Shown: positions 2,872 to 9,018 of the stretch, in pieces
How the letters are laid out: each line of letters begins with the position of its first letter
Numbering within the stretch: the stretch's first letter is position 1
NCBI GenBank assembly: GCA_963169175.1
Contig: CAUJFK010000368.1
Span: 1 to 37,651 of the forward strand
Direction of reading: 5' to 3'
DNA: 37,651 nt
Source: Acidobacteriota bacterium
GTDB taxonomy: Bacteria > Acidobacteriota > Blastocatellia > Pyrinomonadales > Pyrinomonadaceae
The notes under the pieces: generated by a model
The model's input: the letters and a program-made list of their open reading frames with translations, nothing else
What the model was told of the DNA's origin: nothing
Databases searched by the model: none
Position numbers and translations under genes: made by a program

Positions 2872-2882
2872 CGACCGGCCTC

Positions 2883-5453
2883 TCATTCAAATAAGGACGG
2901 CGGGATTGTGGCGGCAACCATCTCCTCTAGACTTTCCGGATTCAAGGATTCGAAGTCTTTTTGCCGGATCTTAATGTATTTCCATTCTTCGCCTGTTAGT
3001 TCCGCTGCGTTCTCGCACCATAAGATCGCGGCGTTATCTTTCATCCTGACGTCCAGATCTTCTCGGCCTTTTGTTTCGATGACCCATTTTGTTCCGTTTG
3101 TCGCGACCGCGATGAAATCCGGAAAATAGTTTCGAATATTCGCTCGGGTGTCGTTGTACCGAATCGAAAATCCAAACTGTTCCGGCAATTTTGCGAACCT
3201 GTCGATGTCCTCCCATTTATCAAGACAATTCGCGAACGAGCGCTCAAATTCGTTATCGCACGGGATAAGGTTGAAAACGGTTTTCTTGGATTCGATCACT
3301 TTTTTGGAAGTTGGGAAAGGAATTGTCTCGGAAAGAAATCGGCTCTCGGAAATAAGCTCAGGCGTTTTCTCCTCAACTATAGCTTCCCTGAGAATCTTCT
3401 CGAACGCATTCAGCACTACGAAACTCGCAATGTTGCTGGACATTGCCTGAACCACGTTCGTCTCCGAAAGGTCAACCGTTTCGCCGAACGCCTTACGCTC
3501 AAAAAACTCTTTAACCTTTGGTGCCAACACGGAAAATTGTGATGGAAGCTTAATATTCTGCGCGATGCGCCTGGCGTAGTAACCGATCACTTCTTCAGCT
3601 GTTTGCACGGGCGGGATCTGATATTCGCGTTCAAGCAGTTTTTCATCAGTAAGGATATCGCGGCCTTCGTAAACAAAGGTCTTCGTTTCTTCAAGCTCCT
3701 TTGGTTTCATCGGAAGCTTGTTTACGTTAAGCGCCATCACATCGATCTTGGAAATTTCCTCGGCGAGCGACTGCTTGCGGCTTAAGATCGGCGAGATGTC
3801 CGGAATTCCGATGTCCTTATCTTTTTTCTCGTCGACAGGCTGGATCGTCAGGATGGTAAGCTTGTCCTTGCCGACTTGAAATTCTTCCAGCTTAAGGTCT
3901 TCCAGCTTTTCGAGGTCGGTCACAAAATCCATAAAGGCCTTGTTTCCGATAATGTCCACGCGTTCTTGATATTGTCCGGCGAGGTTTCGAAACATCAGCC
4001 GAAGTCCGCGGCCGATCGTCTGTTCGGGCAAAATATTTGCCTTTGCGGTATATGGCCGCAGGCCGACGACGACCGTAACATTTTGCACGTCCCATCCTTC
4101 GCGAAGCATTAGCACGGAAACGATTGCGTTGACCGGACTCGAATCGTGATCGACATCGCGAGCAGTCTTTCGTGCCGCATCGAGATCTTTCTTCGACACT
4201 TCTCCCGATCGGTCCGTATGAATGATCAGTGTTTTTTCACCTGCAAACTCGGCTGGAAATTTTGTCCGAAGCCAGTCGCCAATATCGTCGGCCTGTTCCG
4301 TGTTGTTCATCATCACAAACAGGACGGGCTTCTTATTCAGCGGAGCCAATTGCTCAACATACTCTTTCCACCTTAGAACTCCTGCCGTCAGAAATCCTTC
4401 GTACTGAACGCTGGCGATATTTGAATTCGCTTCGACCAGCTTCGAAACACCCTTTATCGGGCGCTTCACAATGCCGTCTAGAATCGCCTGCTTAAGCGGG
4501 TAGTCATATATCGTCCACGGAAAAAGGCTGCCCTTGCTGTATCGCGGCGTCGCCGAAAAATCTAACTGAGCGGCAAGCGGCTTTCTGTCCTGCAGAGATC
4601 GAATGACCTTATTCCATTCGCTTTCTTCATCGTGGGTGTGATGCGCTTCGTCGTTGAGCACAAGGCACAAACCGTCGCGCGTCGCGATCCGGTCATCAAA
4701 ATCGGTGATCTCGGTCTTTGCCGTAGGCGGCGGAGCTCCAAGCATCGCGGTCATCGCCGCCGGCTCTTCCGATCCCGGTTTCGTTTGGCGTTCGTAAAAC
4801 TGCTGAATATTGGAAAGGTACAGAGATCCTTCGCTGTTTGTCCGTTCCGAATCGCCGCGCATGTAGTATTCCATTTCCCACATCCATTCAAGATGTTTTG
4901 GGATCAGCGGAAGTGTTCGGAATATTCGTCCGCTTTCGAAGTCGGATTTCAATCTGTCGAATACGATCACGTTTGGAGCAAGGATAAGAAAGTTGTTGGC
5001 GTATTCACGGCCGCCGCGAATGTAATTCGCAAACTGCCAGACGATGGCCATCGCCATTACCAGCGTTTTGCCGCTGCCCGTTGCCATCTTCAGTGCATAC
5101 CGGGCAAACTCGTCGTACTGCGGCAGCCGCAGGTCCTGTACATTTTTGCCGTATTTTTCAAGAAGCTCAGTGCGGTTCTTTAGCTTCGCGATCTCGAAAA
5201 TGTAAATAAGCGTTTCGATAGCTTCTCGCTGCGCTTCGTGAAATGTGAATGTAACCCCATTCGAAAGCGAGTGGTCAGCACGAAACCAGAAATTCAAAAG
5301 TTCGTCCGTCGTTTTTGTTACACCCTTATATCCGTCATCACGCCACTTTTTGAACTCGGCCCTTATTGCCGGAACGCAGACGGCGGTCCTCAATCGGTCT
5401 TCCAGATTGAACAAGTTGGGAGTCTGATCGGCAACGGCCTTTTTTCGCGGCAT
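2883..5453 (-). CDS. res: Type III restriction enzyme Res subunit (SF2 helicase plus C-terminal PD-(D/E)xK nuclease)
   Basis: 856 aa. Walker A is KMATGSGKTLVMAMAIV and motif II is LVLNDEAHHTH (DEAH). The C-terminal FPDFIAV...WVIETKGRE is nuclease-like. The gene lies in an operon with a Mod-type methyltransferase. Confidence 0.85.
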   Translation of the reverse strand: MPRKKAVADQTPNLFNLEDRLRTAVCVPAIRAEFKKWRDDGYKGVTKTTDELLNFWFRADHSLSNGVTFTFHEAQREAIETLIYIFEIAKLKNRTELLEKYGKNVQDLRLPQYDEFARYALKMATGSGKTLVMAMAIVWQFANYIRGGREYANNFLILAPNVIVFDRLKSDFESGRIFRTLPLIPKHLEWMWEMEYYMRGDSERTNSEGSLYLSNIQQFYERQTKPGSEEPAAMTAMLGAPPPTAKTEITDFDDRIATRDGLCLVLNDEAHHTHDEESEWNKVIRSLQDRKPLAAQLDFSATPRYSKGSLFPWTIYDYPLKQAILDGIVKRPIKGVSKLVEANSNIASVQYEGFLTAGVLRWKEYVEQLAPLNKKPVLFVMMNNTEQADDIGDWLRTKFPAEFAGEKTLIIHTDRSGEVSKKDLDAARKTARDVDHDSSPVNAIVSVLMLREGWDVQNVTVVVGLRPYTAKANILPEQTIGRGLRLMFRNLAGQYQERVDIIGNKAFMDFVTDLEKLEDLKLEEFQVGKDKLTILTIQPVDEKKDKDIGIPDISPILSRKQSLAEEISKIDVMALNVNKLPMKPKELEETKTFVYEGRDILTDEKLLEREYQIPPVQTAEEVIGYYARRIAQNIKLPSQFSVLAPKVKEFFERKAFGETVDLSETNVVQAMSSNIASFVVLNAFEKILREAIVEEKTPELISESRFLSETIPFPTSKKVIESKKTVFNLIPCDNEFERSFANCLDKWEDIDRFAKLPEQFGFSIRYNDTRANIRNYFPDFIAVATNGTKWVIETKGREDLDVRMKDNAAILWCENAAELTGEEWKYIKIRQKDFESLNPESLEEMVAATIPPSLFE

Positions 5454-5457
5454 ATGT

Positions 5458-6474
5458 TTAGTCGCCCTTGCTTTTTCTTTTTTTCGCCGTTAATTTTTTG
5501 ATCTCGCGGTCGAAATCGGAGACGTAATTCTTGTCCTGGACCTTGCGATAGACCTCGTACTCCTGTTCGGCCTTCAGCTTCGCCTTGAGCTTTGAGACCT
5601 TGCCTTTGTCTTTAAGTATCGGGTATTGGGAAAGCTCGAGGAATTGGTCGATGAACTTGATCCAATCCGCCATTTTCATTTCTATTTGCCGCTCCGCCCG
5701 GTTTTCCGCGAGGTCGAGATACGCGGAAACCAGGCCGTTCAGTTCGCGAATATGGTGTTCATCGAGATAATTTTTCGCCGTATCGACGTCAGACTTCAGA
5801 ACCTTGCCGTCCGGAGCGCTTTTCCAGGTCTTCAGCCCCATGAAAAATTTCGTCGCATCCGCCGAATCGTAGATCAACTCGGCCGCGGTCTTGCCGGTCA
5901 CGGCCCAGTGGAGCTTATTCTGAACGGCGGCGAAGAATTCCTTAGTTATCGGAGCATCCTTGTCATAATCCGCGGACAAGGCATATATATCCGTGATCTT
6001 TTGGTAAAAACGCCTTTCGCTCGCCCGGATCTCGCGGATGCGTTCGAGCAGCTCGTCGAAATAATCTTTGCCGAAATGTTTTCCTTGTTTCAGGCGTTCG
6101 TCGTCGAGCACGAACCCCTTGATGATAAACTCACGGAGAATTTCTGTGGCCCAAATCCTGAATCTTGTCGCCTGATACGAGTTGACGCGATATCCGACGG
6201 CGATGATCATATCCAGTTGATAGAAATCGATCTCGCGCTCGACATCCCGATTTCCCTCGCGTTGAACTATTAGGAATTTCCGAATAGTTCGTTCCGGCGA
6301 GAGTTCGCCGGAAGAAAATATCTTCTGGATATGCTCATTTACGGTTGGGATGCTGACGCCAAAAAGCTCGGCGATCAAGCGTTGCTGCAGCCAAAATGTA
6401 TCATCCTGATAACGCAGAGAGACGCTGGTTTTTCCCTCCGGCGATTCATATAGGATCAAATCAACATTGCTCAT
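5458..6474 (-). CDS. rhuM: RhuM family protein (Virulence_RhuM), function unknown
   Basis: 338 aa. The N-terminus LILYESPEGKTSVSLRYQDDTFWLQQRLIAELFGVSIPTVNEHIQKIF...AVGYRVNSYQATRFRIWATEILREFIIKGF matches the RhuM family pattern I recognise. Its ATG overlaps the mod stop codon (ATGA at 6471-6474). Confidence 0.85.
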   Translation of the reverse strand: MSNVDLILYESPEGKTSVSLRYQDDTFWLQQRLIAELFGVSIPTVNEHIQKIFSSGELSPERTIRKFLIVQREGNRDVEREIDFYQLDMIIAVGYRVNSYQATRFRIWATEILREFIIKGFVLDDERLKQGKHFGKDYFDELLERIREIRASERRFYQKITDIYALSADYDKDAPITKEFFAAVQNKLHWAVTGKTAAELIYDSADATKFFMGLKTWKSAPDGKVLKSDVDTAKNYLDEHHIRELNGLVSAYLDLAENRAERQIEMKMADWIKFIDQFLELSQYPILKDKGKVSKLKAKLKAEQEYEVYRKVQDKNYVSDFDREIKKLTAKKRKSKGD

Positions 6475-8642
6475 TTCACCTCGACCTCAACCGCCTTTGT
6501 CGTATCGTTTCCCAAAATATCTATCACCTTAACCAGGACGGTATATTTCCCCGGCTTCACATCCGTGTTGCGGGCCGTCAATTCGATCTTCGGTTCCTTT
6601 TTGGTCCGATAGCTTTGCCACTCGTTGTGAAACGTATCGTCGGAGAAGTTCCAGTCCACGGCCCAGTAGTCTATCCACTGGCTCCAGTGTGTGATATGCC
6701 CGCGAACTTCTTCCGGCACATCGTCGGGCGGGATGATGAAATCTTTCAGCGTTATTTCGATCTGCTTTTTGCCCGTCTTTACATCGACGCCCAATGAAGC
6801 GAGTTCGTAAAATTTGATATCGCCCTGCTCGACGGCCTTTTTCTCCAGCACCTCGCGAGGGATCTTTTTGAACGCGGCGTTTACATTGTTCGCGTTCGCA
6901 AAATGGGCAGCGGTCTCGTTCACGTCAAAGGCAAAATCCCAGCCCAGGAAATCTATCCCGTTGCTCTGGGCCGCCGATTCGCCGCCGGCCATTTTCCAAA
7001 ATTCCTTTATCGTCGATTTGATGTCCTCAACCGTAACCGGGGCCTCGACACTCCCGACATGCACCATCCGCCCGGCTCGAGCCCCGTGCAGCCACGCGTA
7101 ACCGTCAAGCGGCTGTGCGTGATAAAGCTCGATTATGAAATGCCGGTAATCGCGCTCCTGCGTCAGCCGTCTGTTCAGGCTCCCCTCCTTACGAAGGAGG
7201 GGTCCGGCTTTAGCTGGGGGGTGGTTCTCTGCCACGTGATCAGGATTCAATTTTGATTGACTATCGCCCGGCGCGAAGAGAACCACCCCGTCAGCGGAAG
7301 CCGCTGCCACCCCTCCTTCGTAAGGAGGGGAGCTTTCAAACTCCGCGTTCATCCATTGCTGGCGTTCGTATTTGCCGAGGTTCTGAACGACAAACGGTCT
7401 TACATTATCGATACCAAGCAATCGTTTTCGTGCGGTATGAATTGCGAACCGTCCAAGGTCGCAGGTTATCCACCGCCGCCCCAGCTTCTCCGCCACCGCC
7501 GCCGTCGTGCCTGAACCGCAGAAACAGTCGAGAACAAGATCGCCCTCGTTGCTGCTTGCCTTGATTATGCGTTCGAGTAGTGCCTCCGGCTTCTGCGTGT
7601 CGTAGTCGAGTCTCTCGTTTGACTGCGGCGGAACAATCGAAATGTCATCCCACAGGTTTTGGACAAATTCTCCTTCGTTCTCGTCAAGATATCTCTTCCT
7701 TTGAATGCGCCCATCCTTGCGTTTTGGGAAAATGAGTCGCCCGCTTGCGTCCCACTCCTTCATCTTTTCTAGGGAGATTGCCCACCCTTTATCCGGCGGC
7801 TTATATCCCTTGTACTCGTATTTCAAATTTACTCTGAAACTTGGACTCGATAGGTCGGCACTTCTATAACGCCGACCACCCGGCTCATGAAACTTATAGA
7901 ACTGGTCAATGTACTCTTGGCGCAACGGCTTCAACGGATTTATAAAAACATTCTCGCTGCCCTTTGTGTAAAAGAAAATGGAATCGGTTTGCGTTCCAAA
8001 TTCAGTTGAAATACTGTTTGTTTGACCTCGACCGGTCTTTCGTTTCCAAACGATTTCACTCCGGAAATTCTCATATCCATAAATCTCGTCTAAGATTGCC
8101 TTTGCATAGTGGGCCACATGCCAATCGAGATGAACGTAGATGCTTCCATTCCCGGCTAACAATTCACCCAACAAAAGCGAGGTTTCATAAAACCACTGCA
8201 TGTAGCTATCAAGTCCGCGGCCCCAAGTATCGCGATACGCCTTCTGTTCGATTATGCTCGGCTGCTTTACGAACTCCGCCGCTTCGTTTTCTTCGGTTTC
8301 GGGATCGTCGGCGATCTTTGCCGTAAACGAAAAATCCGCACCGACGTTGAACGGCGGGTCGATGTAGATCAGATTCACCTTTCCCGCAAACTCCGGCAAA
8401 AGGCTCGGGAGAACATATTTCTTATCGCCCCAGATCAGCCGGTTACGCCATTCGGCGGACGAGTCAGAACCGCCTGCGTAAGCGGGCGGCCAGCTCGCCT
8501 GTGAAAAGAGCGTTCCCAACCGCTTTTCGCGGTCGGCCGAAGATTCGTTTATTGTCTCGATCGTCTGAAACGGCAAAGCGATCCGAACGGGTGTGACTTT
8601 CTTCCCGTCCTTGTACTTTCCATCCCAAATAAGTTCGGTCAT
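6471..8642 (-). CDS. mod: Type III-like DNA methyltransferase Mod subunit (N6/N4 amino-methyltransferase, beta-class motif order) with a long C-terminal extension
   Basis: 723 aa. Motif IV is NLIYIDPPFNVGADF near the N-terminus. Motif I is VLDCFCGSGTTAAVAEKLGRRWITCDL around residue 375. NRLIWGDKKYVLPSLL is typical of Mod proteins. Confidence 0.85.
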   Translation of the reverse strand: MTELIWDGKYKDGKKVTPVRIALPFQTIETINESSADREKRLGTLFSQASWPPAYAGGSDSSAEWRNRLIWGDKKYVLPSLLPEFAGKVNLIYIDPPFNVGADFSFTAKIADDPETEENEAAEFVKQPSIIEQKAYRDTWGRGLDSYMQWFYETSLLLGELLAGNGSIYVHLDWHVAHYAKAILDEIYGYENFRSEIVWKRKTGRGQTNSISTEFGTQTDSIFFYTKGSENVFINPLKPLRQEYIDQFYKFHEPGGRRYRSADLSSPSFRVNLKYEYKGYKPPDKGWAISLEKMKEWDASGRLIFPKRKDGRIQRKRYLDENEGEFVQNLWDDISIVPPQSNERLDYDTQKPEALLERIIKASSNEGDLVLDCFCGSGTTAAVAEKLGRRWITCDLGRFAIHTARKRLLGIDNVRPFVVQNLGKYERQQWMNAEFESSPPYEGGVAAASADGVVLFAPGDSQSKLNPDHVAENHPPAKAGPLLRKEGSLNRRLTQERDYRHFIIELYHAQPLDGYAWLHGARAGRMVHVGSVEAPVTVEDIKSTIKEFWKMAGGESAAQSNGIDFLGWDFAFDVNETAAHFANANNVNAAFKKIPREVLEKKAVEQGDIKFYELASLGVDVKTGKKQIEITLKDFIIPPDDVPEEVRGHITHWSQWIDYWAVDWNFSDDTFHNEWQSYRTKKEPKIELTARNTDVKPGKYTVLVKVIDILGNDTTKAVEVEVK
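7179..7333. repeat. 155 bp nested palindromic (MITE/RPE-like) element embedded in frame in mod
   Basis: The termini gctcccctccttacgaaggaggggt (7179-7203) and acccctccttcgtaaggaggggagc (7309-7333) are exact reverse complements (25/25). An inner 13 bp pair is ggggtggttctct (7218-7230) / agagaaccacccc (7277-7289). Each terminus is itself a hairpin. Confidence 0.6.
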
Positions 8643-8989
8643 AGGAGATGCGAGTTCATGCGAAGTTCAGATTCGAGATTGTAACATGAGTTTCACCCGC
8701 CCGTCGCTCACCTGGCCGCCCTCGATGATGGTCACACTCCTCCGGGTGCGTTATTACAGGCTTGTCGGCGCCGTAATCATTTCCACCTATCACCTGCCGG
8801 GAATTGATGGATCGGGAATGGTCCGGCTGATGATTTGGCCTACGGATTCGGCGGGTTGAATCGAATGGGAGGCAGGTGAGGGACGATGACGGTTGACATG
8901 ACCATCCGGGACAACTGATAACGCGGGCAGGTGAACCGTCATGGCGTGTCTGTGTGAATGCGGGCATTGCGCTCGAAAGCCCGGTAAAT

Positions 8990-9018
8990 TTGACACTACG
9001 ACCCGAAAACCATAATAT
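8990..9018 (+). promoter_or_regulatory. Candidate sigma70-type promoter for ffh
   Basis: TTGACA at 8990-8995, a 17 nt spacer, then TAATAT at 9013-9018, about 37 nt upstream of the ffh ATG. A small hairpin (ttcggct cttgt agccgaa) lies in the predicted leader. Confidence 0.4.

Follow-up and report, generated by a model that had tools for sequence, protein, structure and literature searches.

An in-frame pair of predicted intrastrand-triplex modules within a Type III-like mod gene of an acidobacterium

A nested palindrome of 155 bp lies in frame within the gene for a Type III-like Mod DNA methyltransferase on contig CAUJFK010000368.1 of a Pyrinomonadaceae bacterium (Acidobacteriota), the analysed 37,651 nucleotides of which are called the window here. 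The feature is best explained, with a probability that we put at roughly 0.78, as the insertion of a heterodimer of two modules of about 60 nt, each of the class II intrastrand-triplex type, in other words of a non-autonomous dispersed repeat. The strand of such a module would fold back twice, first into a hairpin and then as an antiparallel reverse-Hoogsteen third strand.

Architecture of the composite and its putative third strand

The palindrome had been described in a first-pass annotation made from the letters of the window, and the account given there of its repeats is accurate. The 25-nt termini (7179-7203 and 7309-7333) are 100% complementary, and so are the 13-nt segments nested inside them (7218-7230 and 7277-7289). 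Each terminus contains a hairpin with a 9-bp stem and a 3-nt loop, CCCCTCCTT-ACG-AAGGAGGGG, and the mod reading frame remains open across all 155 bp. The 21-nt hairpin is present at only two places in the 37.6-kb window and gave no match in 100 shuffles. The 155 nt are predicted to fold into a single long hairpin both as RNA (-106.4 kcal/mol, z = -11.4) and as DNA (-60.3 kcal/mol, z = -11.9); with both sets of parameters every shuffled control fell far short, and none equalled the element.

The nested 13-bp pair had been regarded as a separate inverted repeat. It corresponds instead to the reverse-Hoogsteen third strand of each of two modules, A and B, which face each other across a spacer (Table 1). 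The two modules carry different linkers; therefore, they are not simple inverted copies of one another. Six G*G.C and three T*A.T triads are possible in each (9/9). No triplex module other than A and B was found in the 37.6-kb window.

The AAGGAGG heptamer pointed out in the same annotation is present, but a Shine-Dalgarno role for it was rejected. The heptamer is explained by the purine arm and the mirror rule described below, under which this arm is free to vary: AGGAGG is missing from many variants, and the heptamer from family members with other stems, GGGAGAGGG for example. In addition, the sole in-frame GTG sits 1 nt past the motif.

The recurring unit of about 60 nt consists of (A)AAGCT, CCCCTCCTT, a 3-nt loop, AAGGAGGGG, a linker that forms a mini-hairpin, GGGGTGGTT and CTCT. 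A scan of one genome per species with the pattern CCCCTCCTTNNNAAGGAGGGG gave at least 120 loci. At least 120 more were obtained from metagenomes with a pattern specific for the variant, with 129 modules among the matches listed. In all, more than 240 copies were found across many phyla.

In these copies, the block that follows the purine arm is the mirror image of that arm. A triad-compatible mirror block was found for 128 of the 145 CCCCTCCTT/AAGGAGGGG hairpins in the 120 genome loci listed, within 30 nt and on one side only. The base opposite G is G, and the base opposite the central A is T in 84 cases, A in 43, C in one and G in none. More than 20 other pyrimidine/purine stems occur in the same loci, and there the downstream block mirrors its own purine arm, with A answered by A or T (AGGGGAGGG>GGGTGGGGT, GGGAGAAGG>GGATGAGGG, AAAGAGGG>GGGAGATT and GGGGAGAGGGG>GGGGTGTGGGG are examples). 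A perfect own mirror was present at 55 of 130 variant hairpin-sides, compared with 3.7 +/- 1.8 (maximum 10) when the arms were swapped among hairpins. These perfect mirrors span 23 arms in 33 loci, and the mirror order prevails over the direct order by 48 to 11. The variant at locus L137 follows the same rule. The constraints are those of base pairing in an antiparallel purine-motif triplex, namely G*G.C, A*A.T and T*A.T. A G-quadruplex as the main constraint was considered and rejected: positions opposite A are occupied by A or T, in register with the arm, even in the A-rich pair AAAGAGGG>GGGAGATT.

The linker between the purine arm and the third-strand block also covaries. Its length is 2-5 nt in many phyla and 13-24 nt in the variant found in the window, where it is always a small stem-loop with numerous compensatory changes (AGCCG/CGGCT, GCGC/GCGC, CACC/GGTG and CTGC/GCAG are examples). 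The stems of 105 distinct linkers hold 482 Watson-Crick pairs, six G.T pairs and no A.C pair on the module strand. This bias is small but one-sided, and may be taken as a sign that the module strand is the strand that folds.

Table 1. Positions of the composite, its parts and the associated features in the window
Feature	Coordinates	Strand	Remarks
Whole composite: two inward-facing triplex modules and spacer	7179..7333	none	155-bp nested palindrome
Module B, class II	7179..7230	+	0 stem mismatches, 9/9 triads
Module B, GCT	7179-7181	+	
Module B, pyrimidine arm	7182-7190	+	CCCCTCCTT
Module B, loop	7191-7193	+	ACG
Module B, purine arm	7194-7202	+	AAGGAGGGG
Module B, linker	7203-7217	+	TCCGGCTTTAGCTGG; mini-hairpin with one G.T pair
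Module B, reverse-Hoogsteen arm	7218-7226	+	GGGGTGGTT
Module B, CTCT	7227-7230	+	
Spacer between modules, 46 nt	7231..7276	none	Conserved in no other composite; not derived from Mod orthologue sequence
Module A, class II	7277..7333	- (mod coding strand)	0 stem mismatches, 9/9 triads; encodes SSPPYEGGVAAASADGVVL
Module A, GCT	7333-7331	-	
Module A, pyrimidine arm	7330-7322	-	
Module A, loop	7321-7319	-	ACG
Module A, purine arm	7318-7310	-	
Module A, linker	7309-7290	-	TGGCAGCGGCTTCCGCTGAC; 6-bp mini-hairpin
Module A, reverse-Hoogsteen arm	7289-7281	-	GGGGTGGTT
Module A, CTCT	7280-7277	-	
Host gene, Type III-like Mod DNA methyltransferase	6471..8642	-	723 aa; PF01555
Second small in-frame repeat	8461..8492	+	GAGTC AGAA CCGCCTGC GTAA GCGGGCGG CCA; 8-bp stem, T.G wobble
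res-rhuM-mod island, 6.1 kb	2880..9010	none	Absent from closely related strain

Insertion into mod and spread of the module

The host protein belongs to the Type III Mod family by its domain, motifs and neighbouring Res. The N6_N4_Mtase domain (PF01555) covers residues 89-404 (E = 6e-44), and DPPF and FxGxG motifs are present. Matches in the Protein Data Bank are EcoP15I Mod (4zcf and 6k0w), and a neighbouring gene encodes the Res helicase-nuclease (PF04851 and PF19778). The insert corresponds to residues 438-488 and lies between the helices 423-435 and 486-506. In an alignment of 80 Mod homologues, 72 have three residues where the window Mod has 53; the 51 inserted residues are therefore a clean indel. 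At the DNA level the gain is exactly 153 nt (7179-7331), or 51 codons, with AGC or GC at both junctions. The empty site in a homologue reads GAA TTT GAA AGT / CCC GAA GAC, and the filled site in the window reads GAG TTT GAA AGC / TCC CCT ... GGG AGC / CTG AAC.

An AlphaFold model built from the 80-sequence alignment has a mean predicted local distance difference test (pLDDT) score of 69.7. Residues 418-489 are modelled as coil with pLDDT below 50, and this coil joins the confidently modelled methyltransferase core to the C-terminal domain. The insert is thus predicted to be within a low-confidence inter-domain coil. Mod seems to tolerate it because the module has no stop codon in any frame seen and a length divisible by three, and because the inter-domain linker is disordered.

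The same site of a Pyrinomonadaceae Mod homologue (P0010; L122 7266-7366) holds a different nested palindrome, also in frame and directly after GAG TTT GAA. Its 27-nt arms are 89% complementary and contain a 7-bp hairpin each; in sequence family it is unrelated to the element of the window. This position of Mod is a hot spot for palindromic insertions. Two further homologues, P0013 and P0017, carry an insert related to that of P0010. It should also be noted that the homologues P0062 and P0084 have low-complexity inserts typical of translated repeats (...NQNLQNDRINRMEEK... and ...SKNQENPEIGGIRV...), here and at another site. It seems that in-frame repeats accumulate in this Mod family across several phyla.

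When the whole element was used as a BLAST query, only some 57-60 nt at one end were found to recur, at 90-100% identity, in Chloracidobacterium, Pyrinomonadaceae and other Acidobacteriota metagenome-assembled genomes (MAGs). Exact 57-nt copies of module A are present in two loci (L237 and L134), and 26 copies are within four substitutions of it. In 33 close copies the conserved stretch begins with (A)AAGCT, takes in a 50-nt core and closes with CTCT, beyond which conservation ceases. The spacer alone gave nothing beyond chance 12-13-mers. Related copies are thus present in many genomes, as a BLASTN check suggested in the first-pass annotation was to reveal. The repeated unit, however, is not the 155-bp element but the module, and this is mostly single: among the metagenome matches listed, 21 of 129 modules have an inward-facing partner. 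Composites elsewhere measure 101-269 nt, and their spacers are unrelated to each other.

Phyla and classes represented among the genome matches are Acidobacteriota, Nitrospirota, Bacteroidota, Patescibacteria, Gammaproteobacteria (Thiomargarita among them), Planctomycetota, Chlamydiota, Chloroflexota and others; cultured strains of Hymenobacter and Robertkochia are included. The general module was also found on 36 IMG/VR stretches, and BLAST of the 155 bp against plasmid and phage records gave no match. Two predicted viral contigs, which may be true phages or host fragments, have many module copies (IMGVR_UViG_3300044996_000692, loci L254 and L255; IMGVR_UViG_3300038435_000085, loci L245, L253 and L266), and one predicted viral contig of 23.6 kb has at least 10 matches to the module pattern. 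In a Thiomargarita MAG (L069 7128-7312), short-linker modules are arranged head to tail with a 41-nt period, and more copies lie within the same 8 kb; this means that modules are able to form arrays as well. A Nitrospirales chromosome (L040 5210-6247) has a repeat with a period of about 274 nt, each unit of which contains several different triplex modules (AAGGGGGA>AGGGGGAT, AAGAGGGG>GGGGAGAT and AAAGAGGG>GGGAGATT). Nothing meaningful was obtained from Rfam, either at gathering thresholds on the whole window or at E<=10 on 7100-7420, and a literature search for the literal motifs found nothing related.

Most copies are intergenic, and long open frames (>=900 nt) are depleted of them (28%, compared with 62% for random positions). 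Nevertheless, 22 of the 97 modules with enough flank, among the metagenome matches listed, have at least 240 nt of open frame to either side. The module strand is the coding strand for 17 of these 22, and 12 are read in one frame, as SSPPYEGGVAAASADGVVL, which is also the frame used in the window Mod. Pfam searches confirmed the following hosts: valyl- and glutamyl-tRNA synthetases, methionine synthase (MetH), PurL (two loci), FeoB, a GltD-type oxidoreductase, the FAD subunit of xanthine dehydrogenase, an Orn/DAP decarboxylase and spermidine synthase. In other phyla, in-frame copies were found in a Phycisphaera protein and in three proteins of Patescibacteria: UDP-glucose dehydrogenase, a RarA-like ATPase and one with a metallo-beta-lactamase fold. 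Translation of the module in other frames or antisense gives the peptides PLLxKEG..., PSFxRRGG... and ...NHP....

Relation to known repeats and competing explanations

Bacterial intrastrand triplex motifs were surveyed by Holder et al. in 2015, in whose class II a pyrimidine arm is followed by a purine arm and then by a reverse-Hoogsteen arm (PMC4666352). Their motif TM_ECO is identical to what was called BoxC in the 1990s (Bachellier) and PIT elements by Hoyne, Maher and colleagues (2000); it has the pattern CCCTCNCCC N3-6 GGGNGAGGG N3 GGGNGAGGG. Its single strand forms a stable triplex in vitro by circular dichroism and nuclear magnetic resonance. In Escherichia coli MG1655, TM_ECO is always intergenic. 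It occurs singly or as inverted pairs of type A and type B, is unlinked to transposons and marks unstable intergenic regions. The purine motif is reported not to form in RNA. According to work cited by Holder et al., the PIT elements have no promoter or terminator activity (PMC4666352 for all of these).

Both modules of the window have the three-block order on one strand (+, 7182-7226; -, 7330-7281), only triads of the kinds G*G.C and A*A.T or T*A.T, and 9-nt stems without a mismatch, within the class range of 6-15 nt and at most one mismatch. The first loop, of 3 nt, is short as in the class, whereas the second, of 15 and 20 nt, is not. Loops were limited to 1-6 nt in the search with ITxF and to 0-10 nt by Hoyne et al. 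(PMC4666352). The window variant would escape the published search because of the 1-6 nt limit; its second loop is a hairpin, which lets it escape such rules. Since this mini-hairpin brings the ends together and the loop limit is a search parameter, the element is filed here as a class II variant.

The module shares with BoxC/PIT/TM_ECO the order of the strands, 9-nt stems, a first loop of 3-6 nt, and G*G.C and A/T*A.T triads. Both are G/C-rich, multi-copy and dispersed, are found singly or as inverted pairs of different subtypes, and have no associated transposase. Stems of the TM_ECO type (CCCTCTCCC / GGGAGAGGG / GGGTGAGGG) were recovered independently in the same loci as the module. The module is not TM_ECO or BoxC in the strict sense, in view of its stem (CCCCTCCTT / AAGGAGGGG / GGGGTGGTT, with conserved flanks (A)AAGCT and CTCT) and its intragenic site. 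Its second loop is a covarying mini-hairpin of 13-24 nt, compared with 3 nt in TM_ECO. Its hosts are Acidobacteriota and many other phyla including Patescibacteria, and theirs are Proteobacteria and Cyanobacteria; about a quarter of the Acidobacteriota-type module copies are in genes and in frame, whereas TM_ECO in MG1655 is never there. What is new relative to the known class is therefore the stem, the structured second loop, the host phyla and the frequent in-frame residence in genes. The first-pass annotation knew of no such element in an R-M (restriction-modification) methyltransferase. This holds for the location but not for the element class, since intrastrand triplexes of the BoxC/PIT/TM kind had already been published. 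Among the later publications searched, intrastrand triplex motifs came up in a review, which has no new information on intragenic copies.

In manner of working, though not in sequence family, the insertion resembles those of the Rickettsia palindromic elements (RPEs): a palindrome lies in an open reading frame (ORF), and orthologues lack it. RPEs too are short, palindromic, dispersed repeats that reside in frame in coding genes, including housekeeping genes, and add a tolerated peptide. The parallel drawn in the annotation between the permissive Mod linker and the Rickettsia host genes is sound. There is no sequence relation to RPEs, which are lineage-restricted and of which some are CGTC-tagged repetitive extragenic palindromic (REP) sequences (PMC3733652); no mirror-repeat third strand has been described for them.

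A possible course of events can be outlined. The triplex fold would form while the DNA is transiently single-stranded, during replication, transcription or repair, and the folded triplex may be the feature that is recognised by the machinery or process of propagation. If so, the module would be a selfish element of the REP/REPIN kind rather than a device for Mod. Other Mod orthologues appear to carry other palindromic insertions at the same linker, and the 51-residue peptide would be a by-product. For the mod gene of the window the insert is probably neutral baggage. The insert is likely to have side effects, namely stalled replication or instability at the site and an mRNA hairpin of great stability.

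Several points weigh against this explanation. In E. coli, neither the double-stranded form nor in vivo footprinting with dimethyl sulfate (DMS) gave a triplex (PMC4666352). Triplex formation by the window element is predicted from its sequence, and a triplex whose second loop of 15-20 nt is outside the class-defining limits may or may not be stable. Covariation proves the mirror constraint, not the physical cause of that constraint. Neither a mobilising enzyme nor an unambiguous target-site duplication was found. No presence/absence polymorphism was found among near-identical mod alleles: the closest strain lacks the whole R-M island, and alleles with and without the element are therefore not comparable. 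The low pLDDT of the insert is partly expected, as no homologue shares it, and Mod may or may not have kept its activity.

The question whether intrastrand DNA triplexes form or matter in bacteria dates from the work on PIT and BoxC, and in the E. coli studies the motif folded in vitro, but neither a signal in vivo nor a function was found. Covariation of both the third strand and the structured linker with the hairpin, across many stem sequences and phyla, is the signature expected if a three-stranded fold is under selection. Triplex repeats are also able, like RPEs in Rickettsia, to reside in frame in essential genes. For annotation, the modules and the second repeat account for the odd recurrent peptides SSPPYEGGVAAASADGVVL, PLLxKEG... 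and PPAxAGGSD in proteins of Acidobacteriota and candidate phyla. A wider generalisation is offered tentatively and is on balance doubtful: that intrastrand-triplex modules are a cross-phylum class of single-strand-structured mobile DNA, that the triple-helical fold and not just the hairpin is recognised for propagation, and that essential genes (tRNA synthetases, MetH and PurL) and defence genes of Acidobacteriota and Patescibacteria have been colonised in frame, with the addition of disordered peptide loops. Were this so, third-strand covariation over more than 20 types of stem would provide a first sign from evolution that such triplexes form and matter in vivo.

Among the alternatives, movement in trans as a REP/REPIN-type element, by a Y1 transposase (an IS200-like or REP-associated tyrosine transposase, RAYT) acting on single-stranded hairpin DNA, possibly 3' of an AAAGC target, survives best, although we consider it unlikely. 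Like REP, REPIN and BIME sequences, the module is a small hairpin unit that occurs singly or as an inverted doublet with a variable spacer and a long hairpin. Recognition of those sequences is thought to be at the single-strand level, the folding of the module is strand-specific, and intragenic REPs are documented (PMC3733652). Copies share the 5' flank (A)AAGCT; in the window, host codons supply the corresponding GAAAGC, which is GAAAGT in the empty site. The resemblance between GAAAGC at the left junction and the (A)AAGCT flank could reflect target preference, a short duplication or coincidence. The module, however, has no GTAG or CGTC tag (its 5' end is (A)AAGCT and its 3' end CTCT), it has an additional third-strand block and linker hairpin, and E. 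coli BoxC has no known link to the RAYT of that species. No RAYT gene flanked by modules was found in the loci examined, which are stretches and not whole genomes. An all-against-all comparison of ORFs in the 120 loci listed gave generic families only as recurrent neighbours, e.g. kinases, ABC ATPases and FabI. A Y1_Tnp match, an IS200/RAYT-type gene fragment (L123 13855-14073) in a Pyrinomonadaceae relative, 5.8 kb downstream of its mod-res operon, was followed up as a lead and dropped, because L121-L123 contain no modules. It should be mentioned that this alternative overlaps the explanation preferred here, and that the only difference is the enzyme named.

The annotation had pictured a mobile palindromic element tolerated in a linker of Mod and similar to a miniature transposable element with inverted repeats (MITE). 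The first part is borne out by the dispersal, the in-frame position, the orthologues without the insert and the related copies elsewhere; the MITE form is not. A classical MITE would have arisen by deletion from an insertion sequence (IS); its 25-bp ends would be the terminal inverted repeats, the 155 bp would be moved as one unit by a DDE transposase, and a short target-site duplication would be left. The perfect 25-bp termini, the long-hairpin RNA fold and a size below some 300 bp recall Correia, Nezha and ERIC, for which occasional in-frame insertion is also known. The AGC or GC repeated at the two junctions and composites of similar length elsewhere could be read in the same way. This origin is nonetheless very unlikely. 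The conserved unit is the single terminal module, usually without an inward partner; spacers differ between composites, as do the linkers of the two window modules. Neither repetition of the whole element nor an autonomous IS with the same ends was found in the approximately 240 loci listed, and no transposase recurs in or near the modules there. One candidate for an autonomous element bounded by modules (L065 5188-7099) turned out to contain ordinary helicase-like genes. The junction repeat, of 2-3 bp, overlaps the palindrome and is hence ambiguous, and other copies show (A)AAGCT ... CTCT rather than variable duplications.

The annotation had also considered a cruciform or RNA structure that modulates mod. 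A structure selected in cis for Mod, such as an RNase III site, a translational brake, a recombination switch or a device for phase variation, would agree with the very stable RNA hairpin. Type III mod genes are often phase variable, and TM motifs are associated with local instability. Such a role is highly improbable, and nothing points to it: the same module is found in unrelated housekeeping genes (tRNA synthetase, MetH and PurL) and, for the most part, between genes, the insert is missing from 72 of 80 Mod homologues, and there is no simple-sequence tract. Moreover, PIT elements lack promoter and terminator activity, and no Rfam family matches. That the 51 residues were selected as a flexible linker or interaction peptide is scarcely credible, even though the frame is open, the insert lies in a coil between two domains and the peptide SSPPYEGGVAAASADGVVL recurs in other proteins: this recurrence comes from identity of the module DNA rather than from homology of the proteins, other copies of the module are translated in different frames or antisense, most copies are intergenic, and conservation follows the pairing rules of nucleic acids.

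The restriction-modification island and a second in-frame repeat

The Ffh protein places the window in Blastocatellia/Pyrinomonadaceae. The order of the genes along the operon is mod, a RhuM-family gene and Type III res. A relative of the window strain (L280; Ffh 99% identical, DNA about 90%) has 163 bp between the Glyco_transf_9 gene and ffh, with no res-rhuM-mod. As this relative lacks the segment, res-rhuM-mod is a strain-specific island. Its G+C content is about 0.48-0.53, compared with 0.56-0.59 in the flanks. An exact look-up of the window Ffh for a near-identical strain gave no match. There is an overlap of 4 nt between the RhuM-family gene (5458-6474, minus strand; PF13310, E = 1e-112) and the mod stop; the relatives L121 and L122/L123 have no gene between mod and res, which follows directly.

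The hairpin at 8470-8489 was previously noted as a weaker version of the 155-bp element. The hairpin is real, but it belongs to a separate repeat family. Read on the mod strand, the repeat encodes WPPAYAGGSD near the N-terminus of Mod, and it lies in a small indel of its own (17 residues, compared with 4-10 in all 79 other homologues). The consensus of the family is GTCAGAACCGCCTGCGTnAGCGGGYGG, with the T.G wobble kept on one strand. A strict nucleotide pattern gave just one more copy, and a scan at the peptide level gave 43 matches in 15 sources, compared with 1-5 in shuffles. In related metagenome contigs the family is read in frame as PPAxAGGSD or SEPPAxAGG in the genes for PurL, MetH and xanthine dehydrogenase. 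CGTC-type REPs, as described by Di Nocera et al. (2013), include some of the RPEs of Rickettsia and occur inside genes; they have the tag CGTC (often TGTC or CCTC), an 8-9-bp stem, a 4-5-nt loop and a CCA tail (PMC3733652). The second repeat, with AGTC, an 8-bp stem, a 4-nt loop and a CCA tail, resembles this type, as far as its letters can be compared with the published description.

A Band_7/double-zinc-ribbon gene contains three direct repeats of 27 nt at 1302-1490, spaced by 84 and 78 nt. These probably encode repeated zinc-ribbon units and have no relation to the element in mod.

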